Assembly (NCBI GenBank): GCA_016839785.1
Contig: JAEOTQ010000155.1
Coordinates: forward strand, 1-60,841
Direction: 5' to 3'
DNA from: Candidatus Hodarchaeota archaeon
GTDB lineage: Archaea > Asgardarchaeota > Heimdallarchaeia > Hodarchaeales > Hodarchaeaceae
Length of the DNA stretch: 60,841 bases
A model generated the notes under the pieces. It was not told the origin of the DNA and searched no databases. It saw only the letters and a program-made list of their open reading frames with translations. Made by a program: the position numbers and the translations under genes. Shown piece after piece: positions 28,267 through 44,251 of this stretch. The stretch's first letter is position 1, and each line of letters opens with the position of its first letter.

Positions 28267-28542
28267 TTGAAAATCATGTCCAAGATACATCAACCAAACC
28301 TACGAAATATCAGATCAGAGTCTCCAAGCCTACAAGTAGGAAAGAATGGTTTATCTGATTCCTTCCTAATCGAACTCGATAACCGATTAAAAAAAGAAGG
28401 AACCGTGAAAATAAAATTTCTCAAAAATTCTCCTTACAGTTCACGTCAAGAAGCGATTTTAGCGTTGAAAGGGGTACTGAACAGTAAATTTGAATTGATA
28501 GAGACCCGAGGCTGGACTGCAACCTTACACAAGAAAAGTTAA
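28267..28542 (+). CDS. YhbY/CRM-domain RNA-binding protein
   Basis: PSLQVGKNGL...LKKEGTVKIKFLK...ETRGWTATL. Confidence 0.85.
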   Translation: MKIMSKIHQPNLRNIRSESPSLQVGKNGLSDSFLIELDNRLKKEGTVKIKFLKNSPYSSRQEAILALKGVLNSKFELIETRGWTATLHKKS

Positions 28543-29120
28543 CTATTCTGAGATGTTTTTGTCCCGTATAGTTGGATCATCAAAATTTCACGAGCCAGGG
28601 ATTGAAAAGCTCGTTTTATCCCAATTCCAGTCGTAGCCACAGTCTCATAAATCGGATACATGGATAATTCTAATTTTTCGACGAGTTGGGATCTTGGTAG
28701 TGCGTCTTCAATATCCCGTTTGTTCAATGTTATGACTAAAGGAATGGTGGTGCCTAAATCTTCTCCCAGACGAGTCTTAAGTTCCTCAAAAGATGATATA
28801 TTTTCCTGCATTTGATCTGGTGAAGAATCAACTACAAATAAAATACCATCTACTCCTTGAATTACAATTTTACGTTGGTGTTTATGCCGTTCCTGTCCCG
28901 CAGTGGTATAAACGTCGAAAACAACGCCAGTTGTGGCTTGCATCGGTGCAAAATCAAAGAAAAGGGTACGTCCGTGTGGATCGGCAAGTTGAGTGAATTT
29001 TCCTTTTTCTAATCCATCAACTTTATGATAGAGCCAACCAAGAGTCGTTGTCTTCCCACAGAGAGATGGGCCATAAAATACAATTTTAAATCTATGACGA
29101 CCTTCTGCGTCTTTTCGCAA
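28539..29120 (-). CDS. MglA-like small GTPase
   Basis: KIVFYGPSLCGKTT, GRTLFFDF, YTTAGQ, GVDGILFVVDS and NKRD. Confidence 0.92.
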   Translation of the reverse strand: MRKDAEGRHRFKIVFYGPSLCGKTTTLGWLYHKVDGLEKGKFTQLADPHGRTLFFDFAPMQATTGVVFDVYTTAGQERHKHQRKIVIQGVDGILFVVDSSPDQMQENISSFEELKTRLGEDLGTTIPLVITLNKRDIEDALPRSQLVEKLELSMYPIYETVATTGIGIKRAFQSLAREILMIQLYGTKTSQNS

Positions 29121-29162
29121 TCAATTTGACTCCTTTGTTAACTAGGAGGATAAGAGTTTGTA

Positions 29163-29657
29163 TTAGAATTTTTCAAGCTCTCGTAAAGCAGCTTCAAGTT
29201 CATCCTTCTCAAGCCCAGTACGAACTTCAGGTGATTTAGAAGGAGTTCCAGGTAAGGTTCGAGAGGGATGTCCAGCTAAAAACTCATCAAGAATTGAGCT
29301 AAGTTCTTCATTCGCTTTTCTCATAAGCAAGCGAATCATACCGATATTTACCTCTGCATCGGAAATAATTGTTAAAATTCCACGACCGCAGGCACTTGCA
29401 AATATTTTCCCAGTATCAAATTCTGAAGTAACAACATCCAATCCGCCAATTGTTAGATTAGATCCTTGTTCTGCTGAAGCCATAAAGACTGCTGAGGCAA
29501 TTGCGCCAATACCATCAACATCAACAGATACATAACTAAACTTGGAAACGTGCGCTATAGTTAGACCAGTACGGTCGACTAGAATAATTTTTCGAATTCC
29601 GGGTTCACTTTTAATGATTTTACTGAGTACACTGTCAAACCTTCGTGGATCTATCAA
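29163..29657 (-). CDS. Roadblock/MglB-like protein with C-terminal extension
   Basis: IILVDRTGLTIA...GAIASAVF...VNIGMIRL roadblock fold, Pro-rich linker, terminal helix LEKDELEAALRELEKF; directly upstream of the MglA-like gene. Confidence 0.9.
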   Translation of the reverse strand: MIDPRRFDSVLSKIIKSEPGIRKIILVDRTGLTIAHVSKFSYVSVDVDGIGAIASAVFMASAEQGSNLTIGGLDVVTSEFDTGKIFASACGRGILTIISDAEVNIGMIRLLMRKANEELSSILDEFLAGHPSRTLPGTPSKSPEVRTGLEKDELEAALRELEKF

Positions 29658-33806: not shown

Positions 33807-34147
33807 TAAGGGAATAAATTCGCTTAAACTGAATAAGTTAAGGGGAAATCTTGTTTGAATTATGAAGGGAAGGAGATCCGTATTTCAGGTGAGCGTGATG
33901 TAATAAATATCTATTTGTTGAGCATTCCGTTTTCTGTATTGAACAAAATCCTAGAACTAGTATGAAGATTGTAAAAAGACGAAGATAACAATAGATCTAT
34001 CTGAACACACCTAAATATAAAGCTTTAAAAGGTTTAAAATCGTCACAAATGTGAATAACGGATATTGACACTGTTAAACGATTGAGATCGAGTGTAATCA
34101 TTCCTAATCACTTATTTAAGAAAAAAATAATTTTGGTGACTCTTGCT

Positions 34148-35134
34148 ATGAGAGAAAAATACCAACATGCAAGTAATGCGCTAAATCAACTAAGTAATGC
34201 AGCTGCAATGAAAGCAAAACATATGTCAGATCTAGTAATAAAATCTTACACACAATTTGAAGAAATTAGGTATTTGAGCGAAACTGTACCTGATATCATA
34301 CTTTACTCTGACAATAAAATGGCCAATTTAAAGGAAAGCGGGGAAATTCGTGTTGCACAACTCCTAGCGGCTATTCTTTGTGATCAAATAACAGAACGAT
34401 CCAAAAAATTAGTCGAAGATCTTGAATTCGGTCATATGGAATTGGATCTTCGTACTGAACTGTTAGATATTCGTGAACAAATAACACGATTAGAAGAGGT
34501 AGTTCAGGTTCAAAATAAATTGGCTAATGGGGCTCCAGTGTCAACAGAGGGAATGAAAAATTTGCAGAAAAAATATGATTCTCGCATCCAGCAATTGGAA
34601 CGAGAGTTACTCCGGGAAGAAGGACGCACACTTACAGTAACCGCCTTAGATGCAACAAAAAAGCCAAAGATATTTGGTAAAGGAAAATTTGTTGACAATC
34701 TTGCTGATTTAGTTCTTGAACAAGGGAAATCTCTTCGAGCGAGTTCAGGTGGTTATATTTCAATGGCAAATTTATATACTTCCTTAAAAAATCAAATTCC
34801 AGACATTAAATTCTCATTGAAAGATTTAGAAAAGGCCTGTAAGCAGCTAACTAAACAGTCACTAATCGAAGGTGTTTCTACCCAGTCTGGGGTTAAGATT
34901 GTTGAGTTTACTCCCGTTTCTCTTGGAAAGGATGCCCGGAATATATTTAATCTTGCAATCGAAAAAGGCTTTGTAACATTTGAGGAAGTAATGATACAAA
35001 CAAAGTGGGACCAACAACGAGTTAAAAGGGTCTTAGATAGTCTTGTTGGTCAAAAAATTGCTCGAAAAGTATCATCACTCGATTCAGGTGATCAATATTA
35101 CTTCCCAGGGCTATATGGAGATGAAGATTGGTAG
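34148..35134 (+). CDS. ESCRT-II Vps22/Vps36 (EAP30)-like protein with N-terminal coiled coil
   Basis: Tandem winged helices SSGGYISMANLY...SLKDLEKACKQL and GFVTFEEV...KWDQQRVKRVLDSLV...YYFPGL, matching the EAP30/Vps36 C-terminus. ATG at 34148 preferred. Confidence 0.8.
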   Translation: MREKYQHASNALNQLSNAAAMKAKHMSDLVIKSYTQFEEIRYLSETVPDIILYSDNKMANLKESGEIRVAQLLAAILCDQITERSKKLVEDLEFGHMELDLRTELLDIREQITRLEEVVQVQNKLANGAPVSTEGMKNLQKKYDSRIQQLERELLREEGRTLTVTALDATKKPKIFGKGKFVDNLADLVLEQGKSLRASSGGYISMANLYTSLKNQIPDIKFSLKDLEKACKQLTKQSLIEGVSTQSGVKIVEFTPVSLGKDARNIFNLAIEKGFVTFEEVMIQTKWDQQRVKRVLDSLVGQKIARKVSSLDSGDQYYFPGLYGDEDW

Positions 35135-35143
35135 GTAAAATCG

Positions 35144-36040
35144 ATGGCGGAAACAGATAAATTTGGTGGATTATTCCGTAAAATAGGGGACACAATACAC
35201 ATAGGTGCCAAGAAATTCAAAGGCAAAGCAATACTAAGTTCAAAATTTGAAGAGTCATCAGGAGAATCATTAATCCATAGGGTAAAAGCAGAAGAAAATG
35301 ATAATTTTAGAAAAATTGATGGCTTTATTGTAAAAGAACCAGAAAATGCGGTATTATTACAGTCAGGAGTGTTAATTGGAGTGGCTGGGAGCGGAATATA
35401 CCAACTAGAAAAATCTGCAAAGCATCCAGGTAGCGAAATAATATGGGTTACAAAACGCGAATTTATCATCAAATGGGGAACCCCTGGTATATACACCTCA
35501 GATAACGTTATGGTGGGATGTTGGGGAATTTCTCGAATGCGAATTGTTAATCCACGAAATTTCATTATGAATGTAGTCTCCCATAAACAGTACTATAGTG
35601 GAAATGAGTTAAAAAATTGGGTTAAACAAACGATTATTGCAGCAGTCAAACATGTTATGACTCGGTACACTGTTCCAGAATTGTTAAAAGAAAGGAGAAG
35701 CCTAGAAATACAAACAAGATCTGAATTAGGGCCTGAAAGCTCACGATGGGGTTTGGAGCTAGTAGGTTTAGATATTGGTGGATTCAAAGTACCTGAAGAA
35801 TATGAGACCTTACTAACATATGAAATAGAGAAGCAGATTATTGAAACTCGGCAAGAGCTTGCAGAAGAGCGAAATCAATTAGACGAGGTTTCAGAAAAAA
35901 TTAAGAAATTCGAATTAATGCTCGAACAGGCTGATGAGATGTTTCTTGCTGGTAAAATTTCGGAAAAACGGTATAAAGAACTAACAGACAAGTATTCATC
36001 AAAACTAGCAAAATTAAAAGCCCAAGAAACTCCCTTATAG
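35144..36040 (+). CDS. SPFH/Band-7 domain protein with C-terminal coiled coil/SHOCT-like end
   Basis: FIVKEPENAVLLQSG...IKWGT...RIVNPRNF...RWGLELVGLDI..KVPEE; ends AGKISEKRYKEL. Confidence 0.8.
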   Translation: MAETDKFGGLFRKIGDTIHIGAKKFKGKAILSSKFEESSGESLIHRVKAEENDNFRKIDGFIVKEPENAVLLQSGVLIGVAGSGIYQLEKSAKHPGSEIIWVTKREFIIKWGTPGIYTSDNVMVGCWGISRMRIVNPRNFIMNVVSHKQYYSGNELKNWVKQTIIAAVKHVMTRYTVPELLKERRSLEIQTRSELGPESSRWGLELVGLDIGGFKVPEEYETLLTYEIEKQIIETRQELAEERNQLDEVSEKIKKFELMLEQADEMFLAGKISEKRYKELTDKYSSKLAKLKAQETPL

Positions 36041-36045
36041 TTTAT

Positions 36046-37806
36046 TTATTCGTTATACTCAAGGGAAGATCCACATTCTGGGCAATCAATCATTCCAACT
36101 GATTCCATTCCTTGATAACAATTTACACATACTTCTGCTTTACATGAATTACAGATTAACTTCTTCTGATCTGTTTTAACCCAATTACAAACCGCACATT
36201 CGAAAGAAACAAAATCCCTTTTGATAATCAACTGCATTTTTCTTATGTTGATAGATCCTGATATAATTTTATGAGTGATGAGTTTTTCTAATATTGCTAT
36301 AACCCTGTCCGAGGATTGATTACTGAAATCAATTATCTGCTGAAGAGTGAATATTGTTGAATGATTGTTTCGAATAAAGTCCACCAATTGGCTTTCAATC
36401 GAACTAAGACTTATGGTTCTCTCTCCTGGAGAGTACCATCCCGATTTCAATGGGCCCTGTTCACAGAAATAACACTCCTCAGTTGTTTCAAGATTGTACG
36501 AATAAGCGTAAGTTAACCTGCAGTTGGGACAGTTCCGTGGTAGATCGATAATAAATGCCGAAATATTCCCACAAAACGGACATTCGTGGGTACTATCTAC
36601 ATTTCTACAGTTAGAGCACATCACTCTCCTACAGTTTTGACATTCAAAATAAATGGATGGATTGGAATATGAGGAGGTATCTATTTGGCAAAATATTTCT
36701 AAATCTTTTATTCCTTTTACTAGAAAAGGATTAATTGAATCCCCAGCAATAATGCGTAGTTCTAAACGATCTGCTATGATTTGAATTACTTTTAACAGGT
36801 TTAAAACATTTAAGTGTAATTTTGATGCCAATCCCTCAATATCAATTCCCTGTTTGAACCAGTCAATCAAAGTTCTTCCTTTAAATGTTTTTTCTGATAA
36901 TTCACCTTTAAAGCTTTCATTCAGTAGTAATAATAGGTTGTAGAGATCATCAAACGCAAGATCAAACCTTGCCTGCCAGAAATCCAAAGGAATCTCTTGA
37001 TAAACATAAATATCCCATATGATTTGTGATACGATATCAATAGTAGAATAGATATAATTATTATCCTTAGATTGGATATAGCTTAAACCTTTTCCAATAG
37101 ATTCAAGGATTATCAATACATCATCAATTGATAGATTGGTAAGCCTAGAAATATTAACTAAGGAAACTTCAGAAGAGATTTGGAAGGAAGCATTTATGAA
37201 TCGGGTTAAATATCTAATTGATCCTTCATTCGGGGAAGAATAGGAGAGATGAATATACTTAAAGTTATAAATTCGTTGCTTGATAGGATCAATATAACCT
37301 CGGAACAAATTTTTGTCAGCTAATAAGTCTAATACAGCTTCTAGCTGGTCATCTGTCCAGTAAATCTGATTTAACAAGTATTCAAGATCGTGAGTAGGAG
37401 ACGTACCGAGTAATTTAGCAATGAATGATATTGCACCAGAACGAGTGAAAAATCTTCGTTTTATTAGATCAAAAAATCCATCAATTTTTTGGACATATTC
37501 ATGGATAATAGATTCAAGTAATTTTCCAGGAATATTCAAAAGATCAATTAAATCGCATATATCAACAACTCCCTGTGTATCTAAGAAATGTTGAATTTTT
37601 CTGTAAACATGAGAATTTGGTATGAAATAATTGTGGTTATAATCTAAAACACCTTTTAATTCTTGGTGTTGAATTTTCTCATGTATAAAGGCGATTACAT
37701 TCATTTTATCGGTTTTTGAAGAAAATTCCTCAATCCGTATAGGTGATTGTGCCGTCGAGACTGCTTCAAACCATTTTGTTTTTTTGCGTCTTAACATCTT
37801 GCACAA
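36046..37806 (-). CDS. Winged-helix-repeat (UFL1/PCI-like) protein with two RING-like Cys clusters; candidate E3 ligase
   Basis: Repeated WH units (GVVDICDL..LNIP, FRGYIDP, ISGSINIR); internal CQID...CQNC-x4-CSNC...CPFC and CPNC...CYFC; C-terminal C-x2-C-x11-C-x2-C-x4-C-x2-C-x11-C-x2-C. Confidence 0.7.
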   Translation of the reverse strand: MCKMLRRKKTKWFEAVSTAQSPIRIEEFSSKTDKMNVIAFIHEKIQHQELKGVLDYNHNYFIPNSHVYRKIQHFLDTQGVVDICDLIDLLNIPGKLLESIIHEYVQKIDGFFDLIKRRFFTRSGAISFIAKLLGTSPTHDLEYLLNQIYWTDDQLEAVLDLLADKNLFRGYIDPIKQRIYNFKYIHLSYSSPNEGSIRYLTRFINASFQISSEVSLVNISRLTNLSIDDVLIILESIGKGLSYIQSKDNNYIYSTIDIVSQIIWDIYVYQEIPLDFWQARFDLAFDDLYNLLLLLNESFKGELSEKTFKGRTLIDWFKQGIDIEGLASKLHLNVLNLLKVIQIIADRLELRIIAGDSINPFLVKGIKDLEIFCQIDTSSYSNPSIYFECQNCRRVMCSNCRNVDSTHECPFCGNISAFIIDLPRNCPNCRLTYAYSYNLETTEECYFCEQGPLKSGWYSPGERTISLSSIESQLVDFIRNNHSTIFTLQQIIDFSNQSSDRVIAILEKLITHKIISGSINIRKMQLIIKRDFVSFECAVCNWVKTDQKKLICNSCKAEVCVNCYQGMESVGMIDCPECGSSLEYNE

Positions 37807-37942
37807 CCAGATGATGTCTAATCAATGAAAGGAAAGGCATTTTTATATCATTTACCCACAACCTAATTATCACAAGAGCTATCACAAGTAGGGTCAATTC
37901 AATATTAAGTAAGAAATTTTTCAATATCAGCATGAAAAAGAT

Positions 37943-38290
37943 GTGAGATGTTCCCACGTGAAAGAATCCAACTTTAGATGCCAATTTTGTGGATACGTTC
38001 CTCACTCACATGAACAACCTGGTACAGGTGTTTGGTATTGCCCTAAATGTGGAAAAAGAACAACAATTCGATTAACTGTACCTTCACCTAGGAAATCCAG
38101 TTACAAAAAGCCCCAATCTCGTCAAGCTTCTCGTGATCAAATTTCTAGCCAAATTTACAGGGAACTCACAAAAGAAAAGAGTCAAGAATATGGGCTAAAA
38201 GAACCTTATCTCAATCCAACCATTCAACCAATAAAACCAAAACTCAGAAAAAAGGTACGCATTTTCGCTCCCTCTAAAGATAACGATTAA
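37943..38290 (+). CDS. Small basic zinc-ribbon protein
   Basis: CQFCG...WYCPKCG followed by a basic, probably disordered tail. Confidence 0.6.
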   Translation: MRCSHVKESNFRCQFCGYVPHSHEQPGTGVWYCPKCGKRTTIRLTVPSPRKSSYKKPQSRQASRDQISSQIYRELTKEKSQEYGLKEPYLNPTIQPIKPKLRKKVRIFAPSKDND

Positions 38291-39537
38291 CCCTTTTTTG
38301 TTTTAAACCTGATTATTACTCTCTTTTCTTCATCATCAGTAAGTGAACTCGCAGTTAATCTATCTCCATCTTGAAGAACATTTTTCACTAAAGCTTCATT
38401 CGGAATGATAAAATTTCCTCTAAAACCTATGTAGTTTTTCTTGAATTTACGTTTTAAAACGGTGAAAATCGTCCTACATTTTGAATTTGGATTTATATTA
38501 ATGGTTACTGGGGTTTGCTGAAAAATTGATGTATCGCCGCACACCATACAATCTGGATCTCTAAATAATTCAAAAGAACTTATATTTCCTGTCAAAGCTG
38601 AATAAATTGTTAAATCAGGAACTCTAAAACGATATGTTTGGACTAGAGATTTCATTCGATTTTGATCCTTTTTCTTTAAATCCTTCATTTTATTAAAAAA
38701 CAGGGTTTTTATAATTTCTTGTGATTGAATTCCACTTGTTACTGCATTAACAGTGATTAGGCTAGGTACACGGTATAATACACTCTGAATTATATCTTTA
38801 TTATCAAATATTGGGAATTGGTGTTTCGCCGCTAACTTATTTGCTAGATCTGTTAGTTTTTGGATATCATCGGAGGAATTTTCATCAGGTTCACGATCAT
38901 TAAGTGTATGAAATTCATATAGAGCTTTCCATGCGCAATGGTCTCTCGTTCTTGGAGTTCCAACAAGGGTACATGGTGCAGATAGAACACGTGTCTCCTC
39001 CGGAGGTGGTGGTGAATCACATGCCAAACAGGCGTTATTACTTGGATTAACACTTTGTACTTGACCAAAATATCCATCAGTTGCTGAATCTATTAGCGAT
39101 AAAGGTAATTCTACAGCTGTTTCATTGATATATTGACGTGCCAAAAAATTATCCACACAACCAGCAATAATATCAGAATCCTCAAAAATTTTAAAAGGTA
39201 ATGATTGAATAGGTTCATTATATGCCTCAATTTCTAAAGAAGAATTATAACGACTCTTAATTACCTTCTTGGCGACCTTGGCTTTATTTTTTCCAATATC
39301 CGTTTTCGAAAATAGTAATTGTCGATTTAGATTCGAATATTCAATCGTGTCCATATCAACTAAAATTAACTTTCCGACTCCAAGCAAGGCTAAGTTTTTA
39401 GCTACTTCTCCCCCAGTTCCTCCTATTCCTATTATTATTACGCTGCTTTTCTCGATTAGGCTTTGATCCCATATTGTGAGACGTTCTTGTCGATCAAATT
39501 TCGATGTAGGATGTGAGTTCATTGAGAATTCCGTCAA
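38287..39537 (-). CDS. Ubiquitin-like activating enzyme E1 (UBA3-like, single chain)
   Basis: GIGGTG, DMDTIEYSNLNRQLLF, CVDNFLARQYIN, Zn pairs CLAC/CMVC, catalytic PCTLVGTPRTRDHC, C-terminal ubiquitin-fold-like domain. Confidence 0.92.
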   Translation of the reverse strand: MTEFSMNSHPTSKFDRQERLTIWDQSLIEKSSVIIIGIGGTGGEVAKNLALLGVGKLILVDMDTIEYSNLNRQLLFSKTDIGKNKAKVAKKVIKSRYNSSLEIEAYNEPIQSLPFKIFEDSDIIAGCVDNFLARQYINETAVELPLSLIDSATDGYFGQVQSVNPSNNACLACDSPPPPEETRVLSAPCTLVGTPRTRDHCAWKALYEFHTLNDREPDENSSDDIQKLTDLANKLAAKHQFPIFDNKDIIQSVLYRVPSLITVNAVTSGIQSQEIIKTLFFNKMKDLKKKDQNRMKSLVQTYRFRVPDLTIYSALTGNISSFELFRDPDCMVCGDTSIFQQTPVTININPNSKCRTIFTVLKRKFKKNYIGFRGNFIIPNEALVKNVLQDGDRLTASSLTDDEEKRVIIRFKTKKG

Positions 39538-39557: not shown

Positions 39558-39887
39558 TTACCCCCCTTTTATCTGATCAGGTACTATCATTAAAAGGGCA
39601 TTTTCTTCAATATTGTACGAAACAAGGTTGTTTGATGGATTCATTCTTCGACCTTTAAACAATAGTGCGATTGGTACAACTTCAGGAATATTAAATGCAT
39701 CACGCGCGGCTGTAATTGCTTGAAAAACCGTACCATTAATGTTAATATACTTTTCACGAATATTTTGATCTGGTGGAAGTTGTGGGTCCTTAAAACGGAC
39801 TTTTATCATACGTTCAATACCATCAGATGTTGATCCTTGAGAACTGATATTAGAGTCCCAGACAACATCTTTTTTTCGATTATTCAT
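39558..39887 (-). CDS. Ubiquitin-like modifier ending in Gly-Gly
   Basis: Beta-grasp pattern IKVRFK...LLFKGRRM...LVSYNIEENALLMIV with free C-terminal KGG; directly upstream of the E1. Confidence 0.9.
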   Translation of the reverse strand: MNNRKKDVVWDSNISSQGSTSDGIERMIKVRFKDPQLPPDQNIREKYININGTVFQAITAARDAFNIPEVVPIALLFKGRRMNPSNNLVSYNIEENALLMIVPDQIKGG

Positions 39888-39909: not shown

Positions 39910-40701
39910 CTACACATAGAATAAACGTTCAATTTCGGCCAAAACTGCAATAAGATCAATACGGCCTTTTGCATAATCCTCTAAAGGCCCTCGTATAAGT
40001 GGATACCTAGAAAGAACTTCACTTTCAAGACCGATCGGATAATTCTTTTTTCTCTTAATTGTAAATGGGATTATTTCCCCTGTTTGTGCATAAAAGTTAA
40101 TTTTAATTTCCTTTTTTGTTGGTATAGCATCGTAGCTATCCAGAATCTGTCGTATAAGGGGATCTTTTTCTTTAACCGCGTCTCTTGTCTCAGCTAAAGT
40201 CTGGCTAGTCTCTAACTTTTGGGGTATTTGATCTTCAGTTTTTTGGTAGATCTCTTCTAATACATCTAATACCGAGCTTGTGCCTGGTGACCAATTTTTC
40301 ATTGTATTTAAGTCACTGATCTCACAATTGATGACTTCTCGAAGAACATTTGGTCCATCGATAAATGGTTTCTCTGGTAAATCATCGAGTACGATTAATA
40401 AAGGAAAGGCATACTGTCCAACTTGCATTTTTATACGAATTTTTCCTACCTCATCCCCTACTAATTCTCCAGGAAAATTTTCAAGTATTTTCTGGGATTC
40501 CTGAAATAATAGGTAATAGTGTTCAGATTCCACTTCCTCGTCAGCTGAACTTTCATCGGGAGTTATACCCTGTGATTTCTTAAGATAATTTGTCAATTCA
40601 CAATATTCACAATGAATGGGACGAATAGAAGAGGGTTTTCCTGATAAGGGAGCACCACATCCATTACACTGAGCAACATCTGTCTCGATATCGTTCATCA
40701 T
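39910..40701 (-). CDS. Zinc ribbon fused to an inactive E2-like (UEV/RWD) domain
   Basis: CNGCGAPL...CEYC; FPLLIVLDDLPEKPFI...LNTMKNWSPGTSSVLDVLEEI resembles the UBC/UEV core without HPN or the catalytic Cys. Confidence 0.6.
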   Translation of the reverse strand: MMNDIETDVAQCNGCGAPLSGKPSSIRPIHCEYCELTNYLKKSQGITPDESSADEEVESEHYYLLFQESQKILENFPGELVGDEVGKIRIKMQVGQYAFPLLIVLDDLPEKPFIDGPNVLREVINCEISDLNTMKNWSPGTSSVLDVLEEIYQKTEDQIPQKLETSQTLAETRDAVKEKDPLIRQILDSYDAIPTKKEIKINFYAQTGEIIPFTIKRKKNYPIGLESEVLSRYPLIRGPLEDYAKGRIDLIAVLAEIERLFYV

Positions 40702-41018: not shown

Positions 41019-41564
41019 ATGTCTGATCTACATTCCAGACGATTAAGGGAAGAATTTAAGCGAATGCTCAAGATTTATCCCCCGAAAAGTGCTACCATAA
41101 AGTGGTTGATAGTGAATAATGATCTTCATCATTATTCTGCAACAATAAAAGGGAGAGAAGGCACTCCGTATGAAAATGGGGAATGGAAAATCACTATTGA
41201 TCTCCCACCAGAATATCCCTTTAAACCTCCAATTGTTAATTTTATCACACCAATTTGGCATCCCAATATTGCTGTTGGGGAAACCCGTTGGAAATGGGGT
41301 TCTAATGTCTGCTTAAGTCTAATAAATTGGAATAATATTGGGGAACTTGGTGGTTGGAAAAAGACTATAACTCTACCTAGTGTTTTTGAGCATATTGAAA
41401 TGATGCTTGATGTTTATCAAAGTTCAGGTGATTCTGATTTTCCAGAATATCTTGTTGATCCTGGGGATCCATTCAATCCAGAGGCTGGTAAGTCGATGCA
41501 GTCAAACTTTAATGATTTCTGGAAGAAAGCTGTGGAGTGGACAAAAAAACATAGTATGAATTAA
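41019..41564 (+). CDS. Ubiquitin-conjugating enzyme E2
   Basis: RRLREEF, GTPYENG, PPEYPFKPP.V.F.TPIWHPNI, active-site NVCLSLI and DPFNPEA. Confidence 0.95.
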   Translation: MSDLHSRRLREEFKRMLKIYPPKSATIKWLIVNNDLHHYSATIKGREGTPYENGEWKITIDLPPEYPFKPPIVNFITPIWHPNIAVGETRWKWGSNVCLSLINWNNIGELGGWKKTITLPSVFEHIEMMLDVYQSSGDSDFPEYLVDPGDPFNPEAGKSMQSNFNDFWKKAVEWTKKHSMN

Positions 41565-41660: not shown

Positions 41661-42239
41661 ATGACAAAGAAACATTCCCAAGATAATGTTGATGGTGAGG
41701 AGGGAAAAAAGAATTCATTTGATGGCCAAGATCCCAGTCTTACTAGCAATGAAATAATACAATTAAAATTAGAGACAAAATCTGTTACTATTTTACAGCA
41801 AGCAATCCAGGAAATTACGAATTTCTCTATCAAATCAATGCCAAAAGAGGCGATTGGATTACTAAGTGGGAGAGAAATACGTCCAAAAGAATTAATGATA
41901 ACAAAGGGGATTTATGTTACTGAAGGGGAAGAATACTCTGTATCCTTTTCTGAGGACGATTTTCAAGTATTTGATCAATTAGCTGGACCTGAATATTGTG
42001 TGGGATGGTGGCATTCCCATCCTGGATTTGGACTATTTTTATCTCAGACTGATATCACTACTCATATTTTCTCTTTTCAAATTGTACATCGTTTATCAGT
42101 GGCACTGGTAGTTGATCCCATTGCTGTAGGAATAGATGGAATCGCTAAACATAAATTTTTCCAAGTCGTAGGCGACTCTCAGAACAATTCATTCCGATAT
42201 GTAGAACTAGCCAGTTATCTTGATAAATCTTCAGAGTAA
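41661..42239 (+). CDS. JAMM/MPN+ isopeptidase (Rpn11/CSN5-like)
   Basis: EAIGLL...VGWWHSHPGFGLFLSQTD...ALVVDP, a complete JAMM motif. Confidence 0.93.
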   Translation: MTKKHSQDNVDGEEGKKNSFDGQDPSLTSNEIIQLKLETKSVTILQQAIQEITNFSIKSMPKEAIGLLSGREIRPKELMITKGIYVTEGEEYSVSFSEDDFQVFDQLAGPEYCVGWWHSHPGFGLFLSQTDITTHIFSFQIVHRLSVALVVDPIAVGIDGIAKHKFFQVVGDSQNNSFRYVELASYLDKSSE

Positions 42240-42313: not shown

Positions 42314-43108
42314 TTGAGATTCAAAATGACAATATACGATCCTTTTACAAAACTCTTTCTCATCATTGGACAATTCTTCTTACAATCTGAGCAATACGGG
42401 ATTCTAGATTATTTAATTATATTTTTAGGACCAGGACTCGTATTATTTTTCACATTTTATCTGTTATGGGCTGGTAGGAGGAAGAATCACAAAATAATTA
42501 ACGTAACAAAGGATGCTCTTCTTGAAATTTTCTCAAATGAATTTGATGATTTTGTAACGGATCAATTAAGTTCCAATGGTGGACTACTATTTCCAAAGTA
42601 TAAAAAATCCTCTAAAATTCCATTTAAAGATTTTCGCGTTGTGTTTGCATTGGAAGAACGTCATTTAATGTTATCTGTGATTATCTCATGGTTTTCAGGT
42701 TCAAATGACTACATTGCTATAGAAGGAAATGCAAAAAAAGGGAAATTACCAACTAAGATACAAATCATCCCCAACAATGAGGAAGGACAGATTAAAAAAC
42801 ATCAAGATGTGCTTTTTCAATTAAAAGATATAACACTCGATGTAGAACGACTTGATAATTTCTTTCTATTGAAAGCTACATCTGAACGCATGGGGAATTA
42901 TTTTCTTAAAGATAAGTCATTATTAAAACAAATTTACTCCATTCGGGAATTTTTAGTCAGACTCTCTATCGATTCGTCAGAAGATCCTTCAATTCGAGTT
43001 TATTGTAGAATAAATAAGAAGCTAGACTTAGTAAAGATACATCGATTATTTCTAACCTTAACCGAACGAGTAAATTTAGTCTCAGAAAAAAAGGTCATGA
43101 AGAAATAA
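42314..43108 (+). CDS. Single-TM protein resembling CCDC47 (PAT complex subunit, DUF1682)
   Basis: TM helix followed by GRRKNHKI...F..EF and ALEERHLMLSVI.....ND.I.I, comparable to remembered CCDC47 segments GKNKNSRLA...LESNF and FLKRQDLLNVL....SDQVQI. Confidence 0.6.
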   Translation: MRFKMTIYDPFTKLFLIIGQFFLQSEQYGILDYLIIFLGPGLVLFFTFYLLWAGRRKNHKIINVTKDALLEIFSNEFDDFVTDQLSSNGGLLFPKYKKSSKIPFKDFRVVFALEERHLMLSVIISWFSGSNDYIAIEGNAKKGKLPTKIQIIPNNEEGQIKKHQDVLFQLKDITLDVERLDNFFLLKATSERMGNYFLKDKSLLKQIYSIREFLVRLSIDSSEDPSIRVYCRINKKLDLVKIHRLFLTLTERVNLVSEKKVMKK

Positions 43109-43126: not shown

Positions 43127-43690
43127 CTATAGAGTCTCAATTTTTTCAGTGACTCTTTGTCGTAGCCATTCTAATCCTTCTTCAACATTGAATCCAGTCT
43201 TAGCTGAAGTAGGTACAATTGCATATGAATGGGTCGTTACTTTGTGAAGATTAAGGGATCGTGCAACTTCACCTGCAGAAGCAGCATTTTCTAGATCTTG
43301 CTTGTTTGCTAATACCAAAATTGGAATGTTTTCCACCTTATCGTTATTTAAGACGTATTTCCATAATTCAGCTTGAGCTTCATCAAAACGAGTTCTATCG
43401 TTTGAATCAATCACATAAACTATTCCCATTGAACCAGCCATATAACTCTCCCAAAGAGATTCACGAAAGGCTTCTTGGCCACCAATATCCCAAGATATGA
43501 ACCGCACATTACCAGAACTGAACTCATCAACATTCATACCTAGTGTACGAAATGTACTATCATCAAATTCCCCAGAGGTTATTCTTTTGACAATCGTAGT
43601 CTTGCCTGCATGGTCAAGTCCTAACCAGGCTATCTTCACTGTTAGTCGTTCTCTAGCAAGCCTCGCGCGTAGTTTGGTAAGGAAACTCAT
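43127..43690 (-). CDS. Arf-family small GTPase
   Basis: GLDHAGKTT, TLGMN, WDIGGQ, ANKQDL and TSAKTG; N-terminal amphipathic helix. Confidence 0.93.
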   Translation of the reverse strand: MSFLTKLRARLARERLTVKIAWLGLDHAGKTTIVKRITSGEFDDSTFRTLGMNVDEFSSGNVRFISWDIGGQEAFRESLWESYMAGSMGIVYVIDSNDRTRFDEAQAELWKYVLNNDKVENIPILVLANKQDLENAASAGEVARSLNLHKVTTHSYAIVPTSAKTGFNVEEGLEWLRQRVTEKIETL

Positions 43691-43702
43691 TGAAGATACC
43701 TC

Positions 43703-44251
43703 TTATTTTCTTTGTGTCAATTTACTCTGAAATCTCTCGCTCATCCATTGCCAGGGCTCCTCAACACCTTCTCCAGTAAGAGCTGAACATGGATAAACCC
43801 CAAATGTTCTTGGACGTTCTGCCATTTCAGTTTCCAGCTCAAGGGTTTTAACTATATTATCTAAAGACATAGCAACATCTAAATCTTGCTTGTTTGCCAA
43901 AAATAAAAATGCCGAATCCTCTGGCGCCCATTGAATAACGTTCTTAAGCCATTTAGCTGCAGTTTCTACTTTGTCTCTATCAGCTGAGTCGAAAACAAAA
44001 ACCACTCCCGATGCTTCTGAAACAAAAGGTTCCCAAAGACTAGTAGGATAGGTAGGTTGTCCACCTAAATCTACAGCCATAACCTCAAAATCACCAATCT
44101 TTAGCGTTTCAATATTCATACCCATTGTAGGGACAGTTTCTAAATCTTCATGTCCCTTTAGTCTTTTTACTAATGTTGTTTTTCCAGCATTAGCCAGACC
44201 GACAAAGGCTATTTGATTTTCAATTTCTCGACCAAATAATTTTGTTGGCAT
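43703..44251 (-). CDS. Arf-family small GTPase
   Basis: GLANAGKTT, PTMGMN, DLGGQ, ANKQDL and CSALTGEG. Confidence 0.93.
   Translation of the reverse strand: MPTKLFGREIENQIAFVGLANAGKTTLVKRLKGHEDLETVPTMGMNIETLKIGDFEVMAVDLGGQPTYPTSLWEPFVSEASGVVFVFDSADRDKVETAAKWLKNVIQWAPEDSAFLFLANKQDLDVAMSLDNIVKTLELETEMAERPRTFGVYPCSALTGEGVEEPWQWMSERFQSKLTQRK

Follow-up and report, generated by a model that had tools for sequence, protein, structure and literature searches.

A UFL1-like winged-helix protein with two RING-like fingers, a candidate ubiquitin ligase in a ubiquitin gene cluster of Hodarchaeales-type archaea

Introduction

Does the ubiquitin gene cluster of an Asgard archaeon encode a ligase of its own, and how would such a protein relate to UFL1, the scaffold ligase of the eukaryotic UFM1 pathway? 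The question is raised by contig JAEOTQ010000155.1 (assembly GCA_016839785.1, Candidatus Hodarchaeota archaeon), whose 60,841 nucleotides (nt) were analysed as one stretch, called the window below. A minus-strand open reading frame (ORF) at 36046-37806 stands there among genes for ubiquitin-type enzymes, and a first-pass annotation, made from the sequence alone, had described its product as a UFL1-like winged-helix (WH) scaffold fused to two RING-like domains, perhaps a RING-dependent ancestor of the UFM1 ligase. UFL1 is a RING-less scaffold without zinc fingers that works with UBA5, UFC1 and UFM1; it has no RING, HECT or RBR domain, its activity requires DDRGK1, and we know of no catalytic or E2-binding domain in it.

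Here we report that the frame encodes a conserved family protein whose WH array is specifically UFL1-like in profile searches and in a predicted structure, and that the array is followed by two homologous zinc-finger modules, a Zn ribbon and a PCI-type WH. With moderate confidence, we read the protein as the RING-type ubiquitin E3 of its cluster, built on a UFL1-type scaffold.

Results

The frame was verified on the minus strand, and its translation holds every peptide that the first-pass annotation had quoted. That annotation started it at a TTG (37806), which lies upstream of a likely ATG. All 37 aligned homologues begin at a Met equivalent to residue 4, so the coding sequence is most likely 36046-37797, giving 583 amino acids (aa), and the alignment indicates that the TTG is probably not the start codon in use. 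Target residues are numbered on the 586-aa translation from the TTG (P0001). The 37 sequences were drawn from 63 homologues found by a word-based search, nearly all of them 582-591 aa long, after exclusion of fragments and near-duplicates, and they are 41-76% identical to the window protein. An AlphaFold2 model computed on this 37-row alignment (mean predicted local distance difference test score, pLDDT, 87.4; predicted template modelling score, pTM, 0.76) and the alignment itself give the following layout:

36046..37797, minus strand: coding sequence of the 583-aa protein, with the ATG at 37797 and the stop codon included; the profile match covers 36052-37797
37618..37797, minus strand: N-terminal helix (residues 2-17) and partial winged helix, from the AlphaFold2 secondary structure
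36709..37617, minus strand: five tandem WH domains, predicted UFL1-like (residues 64-121, 122-181, 194-254, 255-312 and 313-366; pLDDT 85-95)
36562..36708, minus strand: finger 1 (residues 367-415), from invariant ligands in the alignment
36427..36561, minus strand: invariant linker and Zn ribbon, from the alignment
36214..36417, minus strand: predicted PCI-type winged helix (residues 464-531), from Pfam PCI and VIA-align
36049..36213, minus strand: finger 2 (residues 532-586) with a helix at 561-569, from the alignment, an isolated model and fold searches

In the model the partial WH is made of a strand (22-24), a helix (31-46) and a hairpin (52-63). Beyond the array come a beta-rich Cys region (367-460), in which pLDDT drops to 60-65 at 401-420, a WH at 469-528 and a small beta-beta-alpha Cys domain at 532-586. 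Mean column identity across the 37 sequences was 0.84 for finger 1, 0.78 for the ribbon, 0.55 for finger 2 and 0.52-0.67 for the WH domains, finger 1 and the ribbon being the most conserved parts of the protein.

The UFL1-like array

A segment of the array had been aligned with human UFL1 by eye, and HMMER with the family profile returned the same pairing (query 64-169 to UFL1 123-234, chain 8ohd_A); it also paired query 21-103 with UFL1 19-102. Searched against all PDB sequences, the family profile placed four UFL1 chains first (8b9x_A 6.7e-7, 8ohd_A 3.4e-6, 8qfc_B 3.6e-6 and 8c0d_A 4e-6), and the fifth-ranked match reached only 0.0078, UFL1 being the sole significant target. Foldseek with the model agreed: UFL1 chains were matched at 6.7e-12 (8qfc_B) to 8.6e-9 over 259-372 columns and accounted for 7 of the 9 matches at E <= 0.001, the best non-UFL1 chain being a SelB WH array at 2e-4. 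The UFL1-like array proposed from the letters was thereby borne out at significant E-values in both profile and structure searches. VIA-align superposed 285 residues (model 1-310 on UFL1 46-365, Z 9.0), and 233 residues on a DDRGK1-UFL1 chimera (Z 10.3); the root-mean-square deviation (rmsd) of 8.8-12.4 Å in these superpositions is large, as expected with flexible repeats, and the pairing of individual WH repeats between the two proteins is ambiguous in them.

Pfam E3_UFM1_ligase (PF09743) matched the window protein at E 2.5e-4 (21.2 bits, residues 67-171) and reached E <= 0.01 in 17/37 family members, at best 3e-6. Other Asgard proteins align with the family. In hhalign comparisons, the family was collinear across 394 columns, through finger and ribbon, with P0092 (95.4%, E 1.8e-8), a 605-aa protein from a Ranarchaeia-labelled metagenome-assembled genome (MAG) that scores 72.8 bits on PF09743 (E 4.6e-20), and it aligned at 93.5% (E 2.2e-7) with P0131, a 787-aa protein with DDRGK, UFL1 and VPS28 domains. 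By these profile searches and the model, the WH array is specifically UFL1-like.

The likeness has an end point. Alignments to UFL1 stop at its residue 365, and its long helical C-terminal domain is not matched, the window protein having two Cys fingers, a ribbon and a WH after the array. Among Asgard UFL1 relatives this family diverges most, and its identity to eukaryotic UFL1, about 15%, is too low to support a tree. Three features set the protein apart: a score below the Pfam cut-off, a neighbourhood that includes no UFM1-type partner, and a different C-terminal half. We therefore class it as a relative of UFL1 at superfamily level, not as an orthologue.

Ribbon and PCI-type winged helix between the fingers

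A Zn ribbon and a PCI-like WH had been noted between the two Cys clusters, and both were recovered. Finger 1 is followed by a linker, N-I-[SA]-A-F-I-[IV]-[DN]-L-P-R, and then by a ribbon, C426xxC429-x15-C445xxC448, whose four Cys are invariant in 37/37. In VIA-align the WH that follows superposed on the COP9 signalosome (CSN) chain 9efq_B with Z 11.6 (rmsd 1.0 Å over 62 residues), after which came dozens of CSN, proteasome-lid and eIF3 chains. Pfam PCI (PF01399) was detected in 23 of the 37 members (best E 1.9e-7), the window protein itself scoring 13.9 bits, under the 22-bit cut-off. On the strength of the model this WH is of PCI type, that is, equivalent to the C-terminal WH subdomain of PCI proteins; the helical-repeat part of those proteins is missing from the model, in which one WH (464-531) stands alone between ribbon and finger 2. 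The WH of DDRGK1 (8c0d_B) matched it at Z 8.9, below the CSN and lid WHs (up to 11.6), and a kinship specifically with DDRGK1 is possible in structural terms.

The two fingers: RING-like, in a tie with ZZ domains

Two Cys clusters with C4C4 RING spacing had been reported. The shared spacing held and is invariant across the family, but ligand 2 of finger 1 is an Asp. Finger 1 reads C373-Q-[VIL]-D376-x12-C389-x2-C392-x4-C397-x2-C400-x8-C409-P-F-C412, and finger 2 reads C537-x-[VI]-C540-x11-C552-x2-C555-x4-C560-x2-C563-x11-C575-P-E-C578; every numbered position in both, as well as H407 in finger 1, is invariant in 37/37. The spacing common to the two, C-x2-C/D-x11-12-C-x2-C-x4-C-x2-C-x8-11-C-x2-C, is compatible with a RING, and PHD, ZZ and AN1 fingers have the same central spacing. 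Across 14 proteins with finger-1-type modules, ligand 2 is Cys in six relatives, Glu in one, and Asp in the target family and two more. An hhalign comparison of these 14 modules with finger 2 gave 95.9% (E 5.4e-9) over 46 columns, and because all eight ligand positions fall in register in it, the two fingers are homologous; a narrower comparison of finger 2 with the family's own finger 1 and ribbon gave E 0.005 at a probability of 7%. An RBR architecture (RING1-IBR-RING2) was considered and dropped, the fingers being homologous cross-brace-type modules with a WH between them; the sole RBR match was RNF31, at E 0.18-0.2.

Finger 2 was also folded in isolation (pLDDT 82.7). By title, its top 20 Foldseek matches were 14 RING or U-box E3s (Bre1/RNF20/RNF40, RING1B/Bmi1, TRIM69, RNF213 and Cbl among them), three ZZ domains and three PolD entries, at TM 0.5-0.6, with the best E-values (0.033-0.1) to the RINGs of Bre1, RNF20 and RING1B. 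A VIA search of 48,161 representative chains returned ten at Z >= 5: aS34 (Z 6.9), six RING/U-box chains (3lrq, together with TRAF3, Nse1, listerin, Ring1b and RNF146, these five at Z 5.0-5.5) and the ZZ domains of Nbr1, p62 and BIG, which with that of PRT1 span Z 5.0-5.6. A re-check against Foldseek's top 1000 chains gave the same tie between RING and ZZ. aS34 has been likened to RING E3 domains by its authors, in the available text of PMC11698992. At these modest scores the fold class of the fingers is, as far as the model goes, the cross-brace RING/U-box/ZZ group; because the searches tie, they do not separate RING from ZZ. ZZ domains bind peptides, not E2s.

Profile searches leaned the same way at low significance. 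Weak PDB matches of the family profile were mostly to RINGs (UHRF1 0.016, MAT1 0.019, BRE1 0.06, NOT4 0.25), and the 14-protein module alignment matched RNF4 (0.0074) and TRIM32 (0.011); with the family's finger 1 and ribbon as query, the PDB search gave nothing below E 0.18. C2H2 arrays topped the search with the module alignment and were rejected as artefacts, since what they match is the recurring 'LPxxCxxC' linker, with each score adding up across repeats. Prok-RING_4 was found in a distant homologue (P0066) at E 6.1e-5, under its cut-off, and Pfam ZZ and AN1 had no match in the 37-member family.

Three positions, C1+2, C6+4 and C7+1, are the usual RING-E2 contacts, as in c-Cbl/UbcH7. Finger 2 has V/I/L at C1+2 and M/I/L at C6+4 in all 37 sequences, and Pro at C7+1 in 32/37; its helix begins right after the sixth ligand, the M/I/L being the fourth residue of the helix. 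Finger 1 has the V/I/L and the Pro in 37/37, without the helix position. Both fingers terminate in C-P-x-C. This ending, the V/I/L after the first Cys and the helix of finger 2 would, as sequence features, make us lean toward RING.

A cluster of canonical ubiquitin genes

The genes around the target run in the order eIF2-alpha, GNAT, EAP30/Vps22-36-like, SPFH, target, a small Zn-ribbon gene on the opposite strand, E1, ubiquitin-like protein (Ubl), a 263-aa protein without family, E2, JAB protease, a 264-aa protein without family and two Arf-like GTPases. Those nearest to it, and one upstream element, are:

34082..35134, plus strand: EAP30/Vps22-36-like protein, ESCRT-II-type (EAP30 1.4e-10)
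35144..36040, plus strand: SPFH/Band 7 protein, convergent with the target, with 5 nt between the gene ends
37840..37849, minus strand: A/T-rich GATATAAAAA, 43-52 nt upstream of the target's ATG, within the 145 nt between the target and the divergent gene at 37943
37943..38290, plus strand: small conserved Zn-ribbon protein of 115 aa (21/22 loci, 37-78% identical)
38287..39537, minus strand: E1 of the ThiF family (ThiF 2.4e-51)
39558..39887, minus strand: Ubl with C-terminus ...IKGG (KGG end in 17/17)
39910..40701, minus strand: conserved 263-aa protein with an N-terminal Zn ribbon and a domain of about 200 aa without family
41019..41564, plus strand: UBC-type E2 (UQ_con 2e-24; UBC enzymes 2e-16)
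41661..42239, plus strand: JAB/MPN protease, candidate deubiquitinase (JAB 3.2e-9)
42314-43108, plus strand: conserved 264-aa protein without family; closest ESM Atlas clusters are unnamed bacterial proteins (score 0.96)
43127-44251 and 28539-29657, minus strand: GTPase/Roadblock gene group as a whole (Pfam Arf)

The E1 is closest to UBA1 (3.3e-34), SAE2 and UBA3, with UBA5 at 3.7e-17; the 60 PDB matches listed for the Ubl are all ubiquitin-type chains, UFM1 not among them; and the E2 carries an HPN motif, Cys98 and a YPF loop, all invariant. Judged by these matches, the adjacent E1, E2 and Ubl are of canonical ubiquitin type and none is of UFM1 type. Among the annotated neighbours the cluster holds no other RING-type gene or E3 candidate. 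Gene order is identical in 22 related loci as far as the contigs reach, with SPFH present in 22, EAP30 and the small Zn gene in 21 each, E1 in 19, Ubl in 18, and E2 and JAB in 16 each; the target orthologue is full-length and free of stops in 21 of them, a contig end cutting the 22nd. As all 22 genomes are close kin, this synteny reflects stability, not independent re-assembly. Because it converges on SPFH at one end and diverges from the opposite-strand small Zn gene at the other, the target gene forms its own transcription unit, for which GATATAAAAA is a possible archaeal TATA box, going by its composition and position.

Several neighbours have features of their own. The Ubl is encoded with a free ...IKGG end, with no tail for removal, and bears a conserved N-terminal extension of about 23 residues in which K5, D7, V8, W10 and D11 are invariant; at 75-95% identity across the family, it is much more conserved than the target. 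The 115-aa protein is basic, with an N-terminal C-x2-C...C-x2-C ribbon and a weak likeness to eL43/L37ae (Pfam E 0.0015; NCBIfam E 4.4e-4, far below the cut-off), and its gene overlaps the 3' end of the E1 gene by 4 nt. In the 263-aa protein C12, C15, C31 and C34 are invariant, and the domain of about 200 aa has a mean column identity of 76% (16 sequences); Pfam, NCBIfam, PDB profile and ESM Atlas searches gave no match for it, and it may be a further part of the ubiquitin system. A pair of Arf-family GTPase genes (Pfam Arf 3.8e-48 and 7.8e-38) sits side by side right after the cluster, and a third small GTPase gene and a Roadblock/LC7-MAPKK1_Int (LAMTOR-like) gene lie farther away; such genes are typical 'eukaryotic signature' genes of Asgard archaea. 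NCBIfam has no model for the target protein or for most of its neighbours.

Distribution and relatives in other Asgard genomes

A HMMER search of 1.84 billion cluster representatives with the family profile gave just 84 matches at E <= 0.001 (14 of them at E <= 1e-30), so the family is narrow. Named homologues come from MAGs of Hodarchaeales, Hodarchaeota, Heimdallarchaeota or Promethearchaeota. When 301 genomes of the phylum were sampled, the full-length protein was present in 20/20 genomes of the window's own family; the sister family had a match in one of two genomes, covering residues 238-582 only, and other families of the class had no full-length protein in this sample (0/29 and 0/11 genomes, for example). 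Only one family of Hodarchaeales-type genomes has full-length members. Two of the 22 orthologue records (L013 and L021) are labelled Hermodarchaeota and Thorarchaeota; their clusters share gene order with those of Hodarchaeota type, at 43-47% identity, and the labels are probably differences among MAG studies. In two sediment RNA-library assemblies, short contigs of at least 99% identity cover 36046-36232 and 36222-36502 in the 3' part of the gene and also parts of the E1 and Ubl genes; with shares of 0.06-0.11, contigs only and DNA carry-over possible, this is weak RNA evidence for the target gene, and stretches without coverage are uninformative.

Parts of the protein are far more widespread. 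A PCI-type WH with a finger, or a finger with a ribbon, recurs at the C-terminus of many other proteins, including an NHL-propeller protein (P0100), membrane proteins (P0086 and P0089) and a CARDB/DUF11-type protein (P0099), with about three further copies per genome of the window's family. The window's own genome contributes two membrane proteins that end in the same finger and that, by sequence, look like membrane-anchored members of the RING-like family:

L043 1336-2334 and L044 1249-2946, minus strand: membrane proteins with the finger, 332 and 565 aa

One of these two has the ribbon, and the other a C-Q-L-D first pair like that of finger 1. In P0100 (1073 aa), NHL beta-propeller repeats (Pfam 4.6e-28) are followed by a PCI-type WH and then a finger, an arrangement that recalls the eukaryotic TRIM-NHL ligases with the domains in reverse order. 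The attachment of one WH-finger module to such varied N-terminal parts would fit a ligase module, as expected.

Pfam-level UFL1 relatives (PF09743 at E <= 1e-4) occurred in 92 of the 301 genomes: one family had them in 61/68 genomes, as ORFs of about 790 aa, and a second, which belongs to the window's class, had them in 14/29, there with ORF lengths of about 250-285 aa. The same whole-genome scan at that threshold found none in the 20 genomes of the window's own family. All but one of 30 fetched ~790-aa ORFs (L045-L074) open with an 8-ligand Cys/His finger, C-x2-C-x8-C-x2-C-x4-C-x2-H-x8-C-x2-H, and a Zn ribbon, upstream of a DDRGK-type WH. This finger aligned with the finger-1 module in hhalign (77.9%, E 1.8e-5, 32 columns), which is suggestive of homology at the sequence level; its weak PDB matches, 1x4v (E 0.14) and 1wys (E 0.6), are presumably AN1 fingers. 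The short UFL1-type form P0118 has no Cys finger. The finger-ribbon-WH set, as traced by sequence, accompanies UFL1-type arrays in at least three architectures, though not in all. As for the form represented by P0092, the 301-genome sample, which does not include its lineage, matched the C-terminal module in paralogues only, and a word-based search for relatives returned P0092 alone.

Discussion

Ligase, adaptor or other roles

We favour, with moderate confidence, a RING-type ubiquitin E3 that serves its cluster from a UFL1-type scaffold. The adjacent E1 would load the GG-ended ubiquitin onto the UBC-type E2, and a RING-like finger would dock E2~Ub, finger 2 being the more canonical candidate, which has V/I following Cys 1, a Met at the contact position in the helix and a Pro behind ligand 7. 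A substrate or partner would be held by the array together with the PCI-type WH; the ribosome is one candidate, as for UFL1, and the neighbouring SPFH and Vps22/36-like proteins are others. The JAB protease would remove the modification. Domain composition, the UFL1-type fold, finger homology, the canonical character of E1, E2 and Ub, and synteny are observed, whereas E2 binding, ligase activity and substrate are inferred.

A number of observations weigh against a RING E3. On the side of the fold, matches of finger 2 are modest, with RING/U-box tied with ZZ domains, and the isolated finger reached neither Foldseek E <= 0.001 nor VIA Z >= 8. On the side of sequence families, the window protein lies under the gathering cut-off of PF09743 (21.2 against 23.2 bits), and Pfam RING models appear in just 1/37 members (zf-RING_5, E 0.0026) against C1_2 in 13/37. 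Finger 1, the most conserved part, has Asp as ligand 2 and offers only 8 polar or Gly-rich residues, at pLDDT 60-65, in the place of the RING helix. A basic 'linchpin' residue after the last Cys is typical of many active RINGs, and in finger 2 a Gly stands there in 34/37. Synteny seen among close kin, within one family, is weak support for functional linkage, and the target is not co-transcribed with E1, Ubl or E2, an opposite-strand gene lying between. A complex prediction of the whole protein with four Zn and the cluster's E2 gave ipSAE scores of 0.12 and 0.17 (mark 0.32), without controls, and we draw no inference from it.

The alternative that survives best, at a clearly lower probability, is a non-catalytic adaptor or receptor whose ZZ-, AN1- or PHD-like fingers recognise ubiquitin, N-termini or another protein. 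The WH scaffold would then tie ubiquitylated cargo to the Vps22/36-like and SPFH proteins, with the E3 encoded elsewhere or the E2 acting alone. With finger 2 as query, ZZ domains (Z 5.0-5.6) equal the RINGs in score, Pfam RING models fail to match, finger 1 has no RING helix, the N-terminal finger of the ~790-aa UFL1-type proteins weakly matches 1x4v and 1wys, presumably AN1 structures, and the target lies directly beside EAP30 and Band 7 genes, all of which would suit an adaptor. Finger 2, however, has hydrophobic residues or Pro at the three positions that we presume to contact E2 and ends in C-P-x-C, not in the His pair of ZZ or AN1; no other E3 candidate is present in the cluster; and UFL1, the nearest structural relative, is itself a ligase scaffold.

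Much less probable is a nucleic-acid binder, a transcription or RNA regulator made of WHs and zinc fingers that merely sits beside ubiquitin genes. It would account for the weaker Foldseek matches to SelB (2e-4), TFIIIC tauB (4e-4) and RNA polymerase III subunits (about 0.04), and for TFIIH p44 among the weak finger matches, but UFL1 chains are ahead by some 8 orders of magnitude in Foldseek and are the sole significant profile matches, the WH at 464-531 is of PCI type, a protein-protein module, and the WH-finger module is found elsewhere on membrane and propeller proteins. The least likely of the four is a true UFM1-type scaffold E3 with structural fingers and with UFM1-, UFC1- and DDRGK1-like partners encoded elsewhere: the UFL1-type fold and the Ufm1 homologues reported in nine Asgard clades (available text of PMC12962969) would allow it, as would the insensitivity of our own-genome scans, in which PF09743 missed the target itself, but those scans found no Pfam Ufm1, UFC1 or DDRGK match at E <= 0.01 in a genome 84.5% complete, every adjacent enzyme is of ubiquitin type, and no part of the protein is better conserved than the fingers.

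A RING-bearing ancestor of UFL1?

The suggestion of a RING-dependent ancestor of the UFM1 ligase gains in plausibility from the fingers that other Asgard UFL1-type proteins appear to carry in their sequences; speaking against it, the full-length family occurs in a single genome family and diverges more than any other Asgard UFL1 relative, with the window protein below the Pfam cut-off. In its full form the proposal is, to our minds, rather doubtful. The eukaryotic UFL1/DDRGK1 scaffold would descend from an Asgard ubiquitin E3 composed of a WH array, a RING-like finger, a ribbon and a PCI-type WH. It is similarly tentative that forms of this ancestor survive as array-finger-ribbon-WH-finger in the target family, array-finger-ribbon in the Ranarchaeia-labelled MAG, and finger-ribbon-DDRGK-type WH-array-Vps28 in a third family. 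No less speculative is the eukaryotic branch, along which the protein would have shed its fingers, its PCI-type WH would have split off as DDRGK1, and UFC1 and UFM1 would have replaced the original E2 and modifier.

If such a descent from a RING-bearing E3 were true, it would explain why UFL1 is a ligase with no known catalytic or E2-binding domain. The target unites in one chain a UFL1-type scaffold, RING-like fingers and a DDRGK1-like WH, and its gene lies among those for ubiquitin E1, E2 and deubiquitinase and an ESCRT-II-type protein. Should the fingers recruit the E2, the route from RING E3 to scaffold E3 would be open to study in vitro with five small archaeal proteins. The WH-finger module on membrane and propeller proteins suggests, moreover, a sizeable undescribed E3 repertoire in the archaea nearest eukaryotes.

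Comparison with known systems

Asgard UFL1 relatives are already known. An Asgard origin of UFL1 and DDRGK1 has been published (available text of PMC10183829), IPR018611 has served as the 'E3' marker of Asgard Ub-ESCRT clusters, and a genome named B3_Heim is plotted in Fig. 1C of the same study (Hatano et al., available text of PMC9192718); a 77%-identical orthologue of the target sits in our B3_Heim record (L001). Fusions of 'E3 UFM1 ligase' with Vps28/Vps23 and adaptin domains have been described (excerpt of bioRxiv 10.1101/2020.10.19.343400). The target shares with these published proteins the WH-array superfamily, the phylum and the association with ubiquitin and ESCRT genes, and differs in that the array comes first, finger-ribbon-WH-finger follows, no Vps28 is present and a single genome family holds it. 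For the finger fusion we found no description in the full-text literature, supplementary tables (Liu, Hatano, Makarova et al.) being outside that search.

The Caldiarchaeum subterraneum operon of Ub, E1, E2, small-RING E3 and Rpn11 likewise combines canonical E1, E2 and ubiquitin with a JAB protease and a zinc-finger E3 candidate, as given in the available text of PMC5654768; there the E3 is a small stand-alone RING, whereas the target, at 583 aa, combines several domains, among them two fingers and a UFL1-type scaffold. Nse1, with tandem WHs and a C-terminal RING-like domain, resembles the target in passing directly from WH to cross-brace finger, at weak scores (chain 7dg2_A: Foldseek 3.7e-3 with the whole protein, Z 5.4 with finger 2). 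The target has no kite, kleisin or SMC context, and the RING of Nse1 has been regarded as a eukaryotic addition (excerpt of bioRxiv 10.1101/2024.01.07.573240).

Comparison with ZZ and AN1 fingers gives a mixed picture: they too are binuclear, with a central C-x2-C-x4-C-x2-[C/H], but their terminal ligands are His, whereas both target fingers end in C-P-x-C. The closest likeness is to UFL1 and DDRGK1. UFL1 and the target each begin with an N-terminal helix, a partial WH and a run of WHs, and the target holds within the same chain a PCI-type WH like that of DDRGK1 (Z 8.9), which in eukaryotes is a separate partner protein that completes the partial WH of UFL1. In place of UFL1's C-terminal part stand two RING-like fingers and a ribbon, and the target lies near genes for a canonical E1, an E2 of UBC type and a ubiquitin ending in GG.

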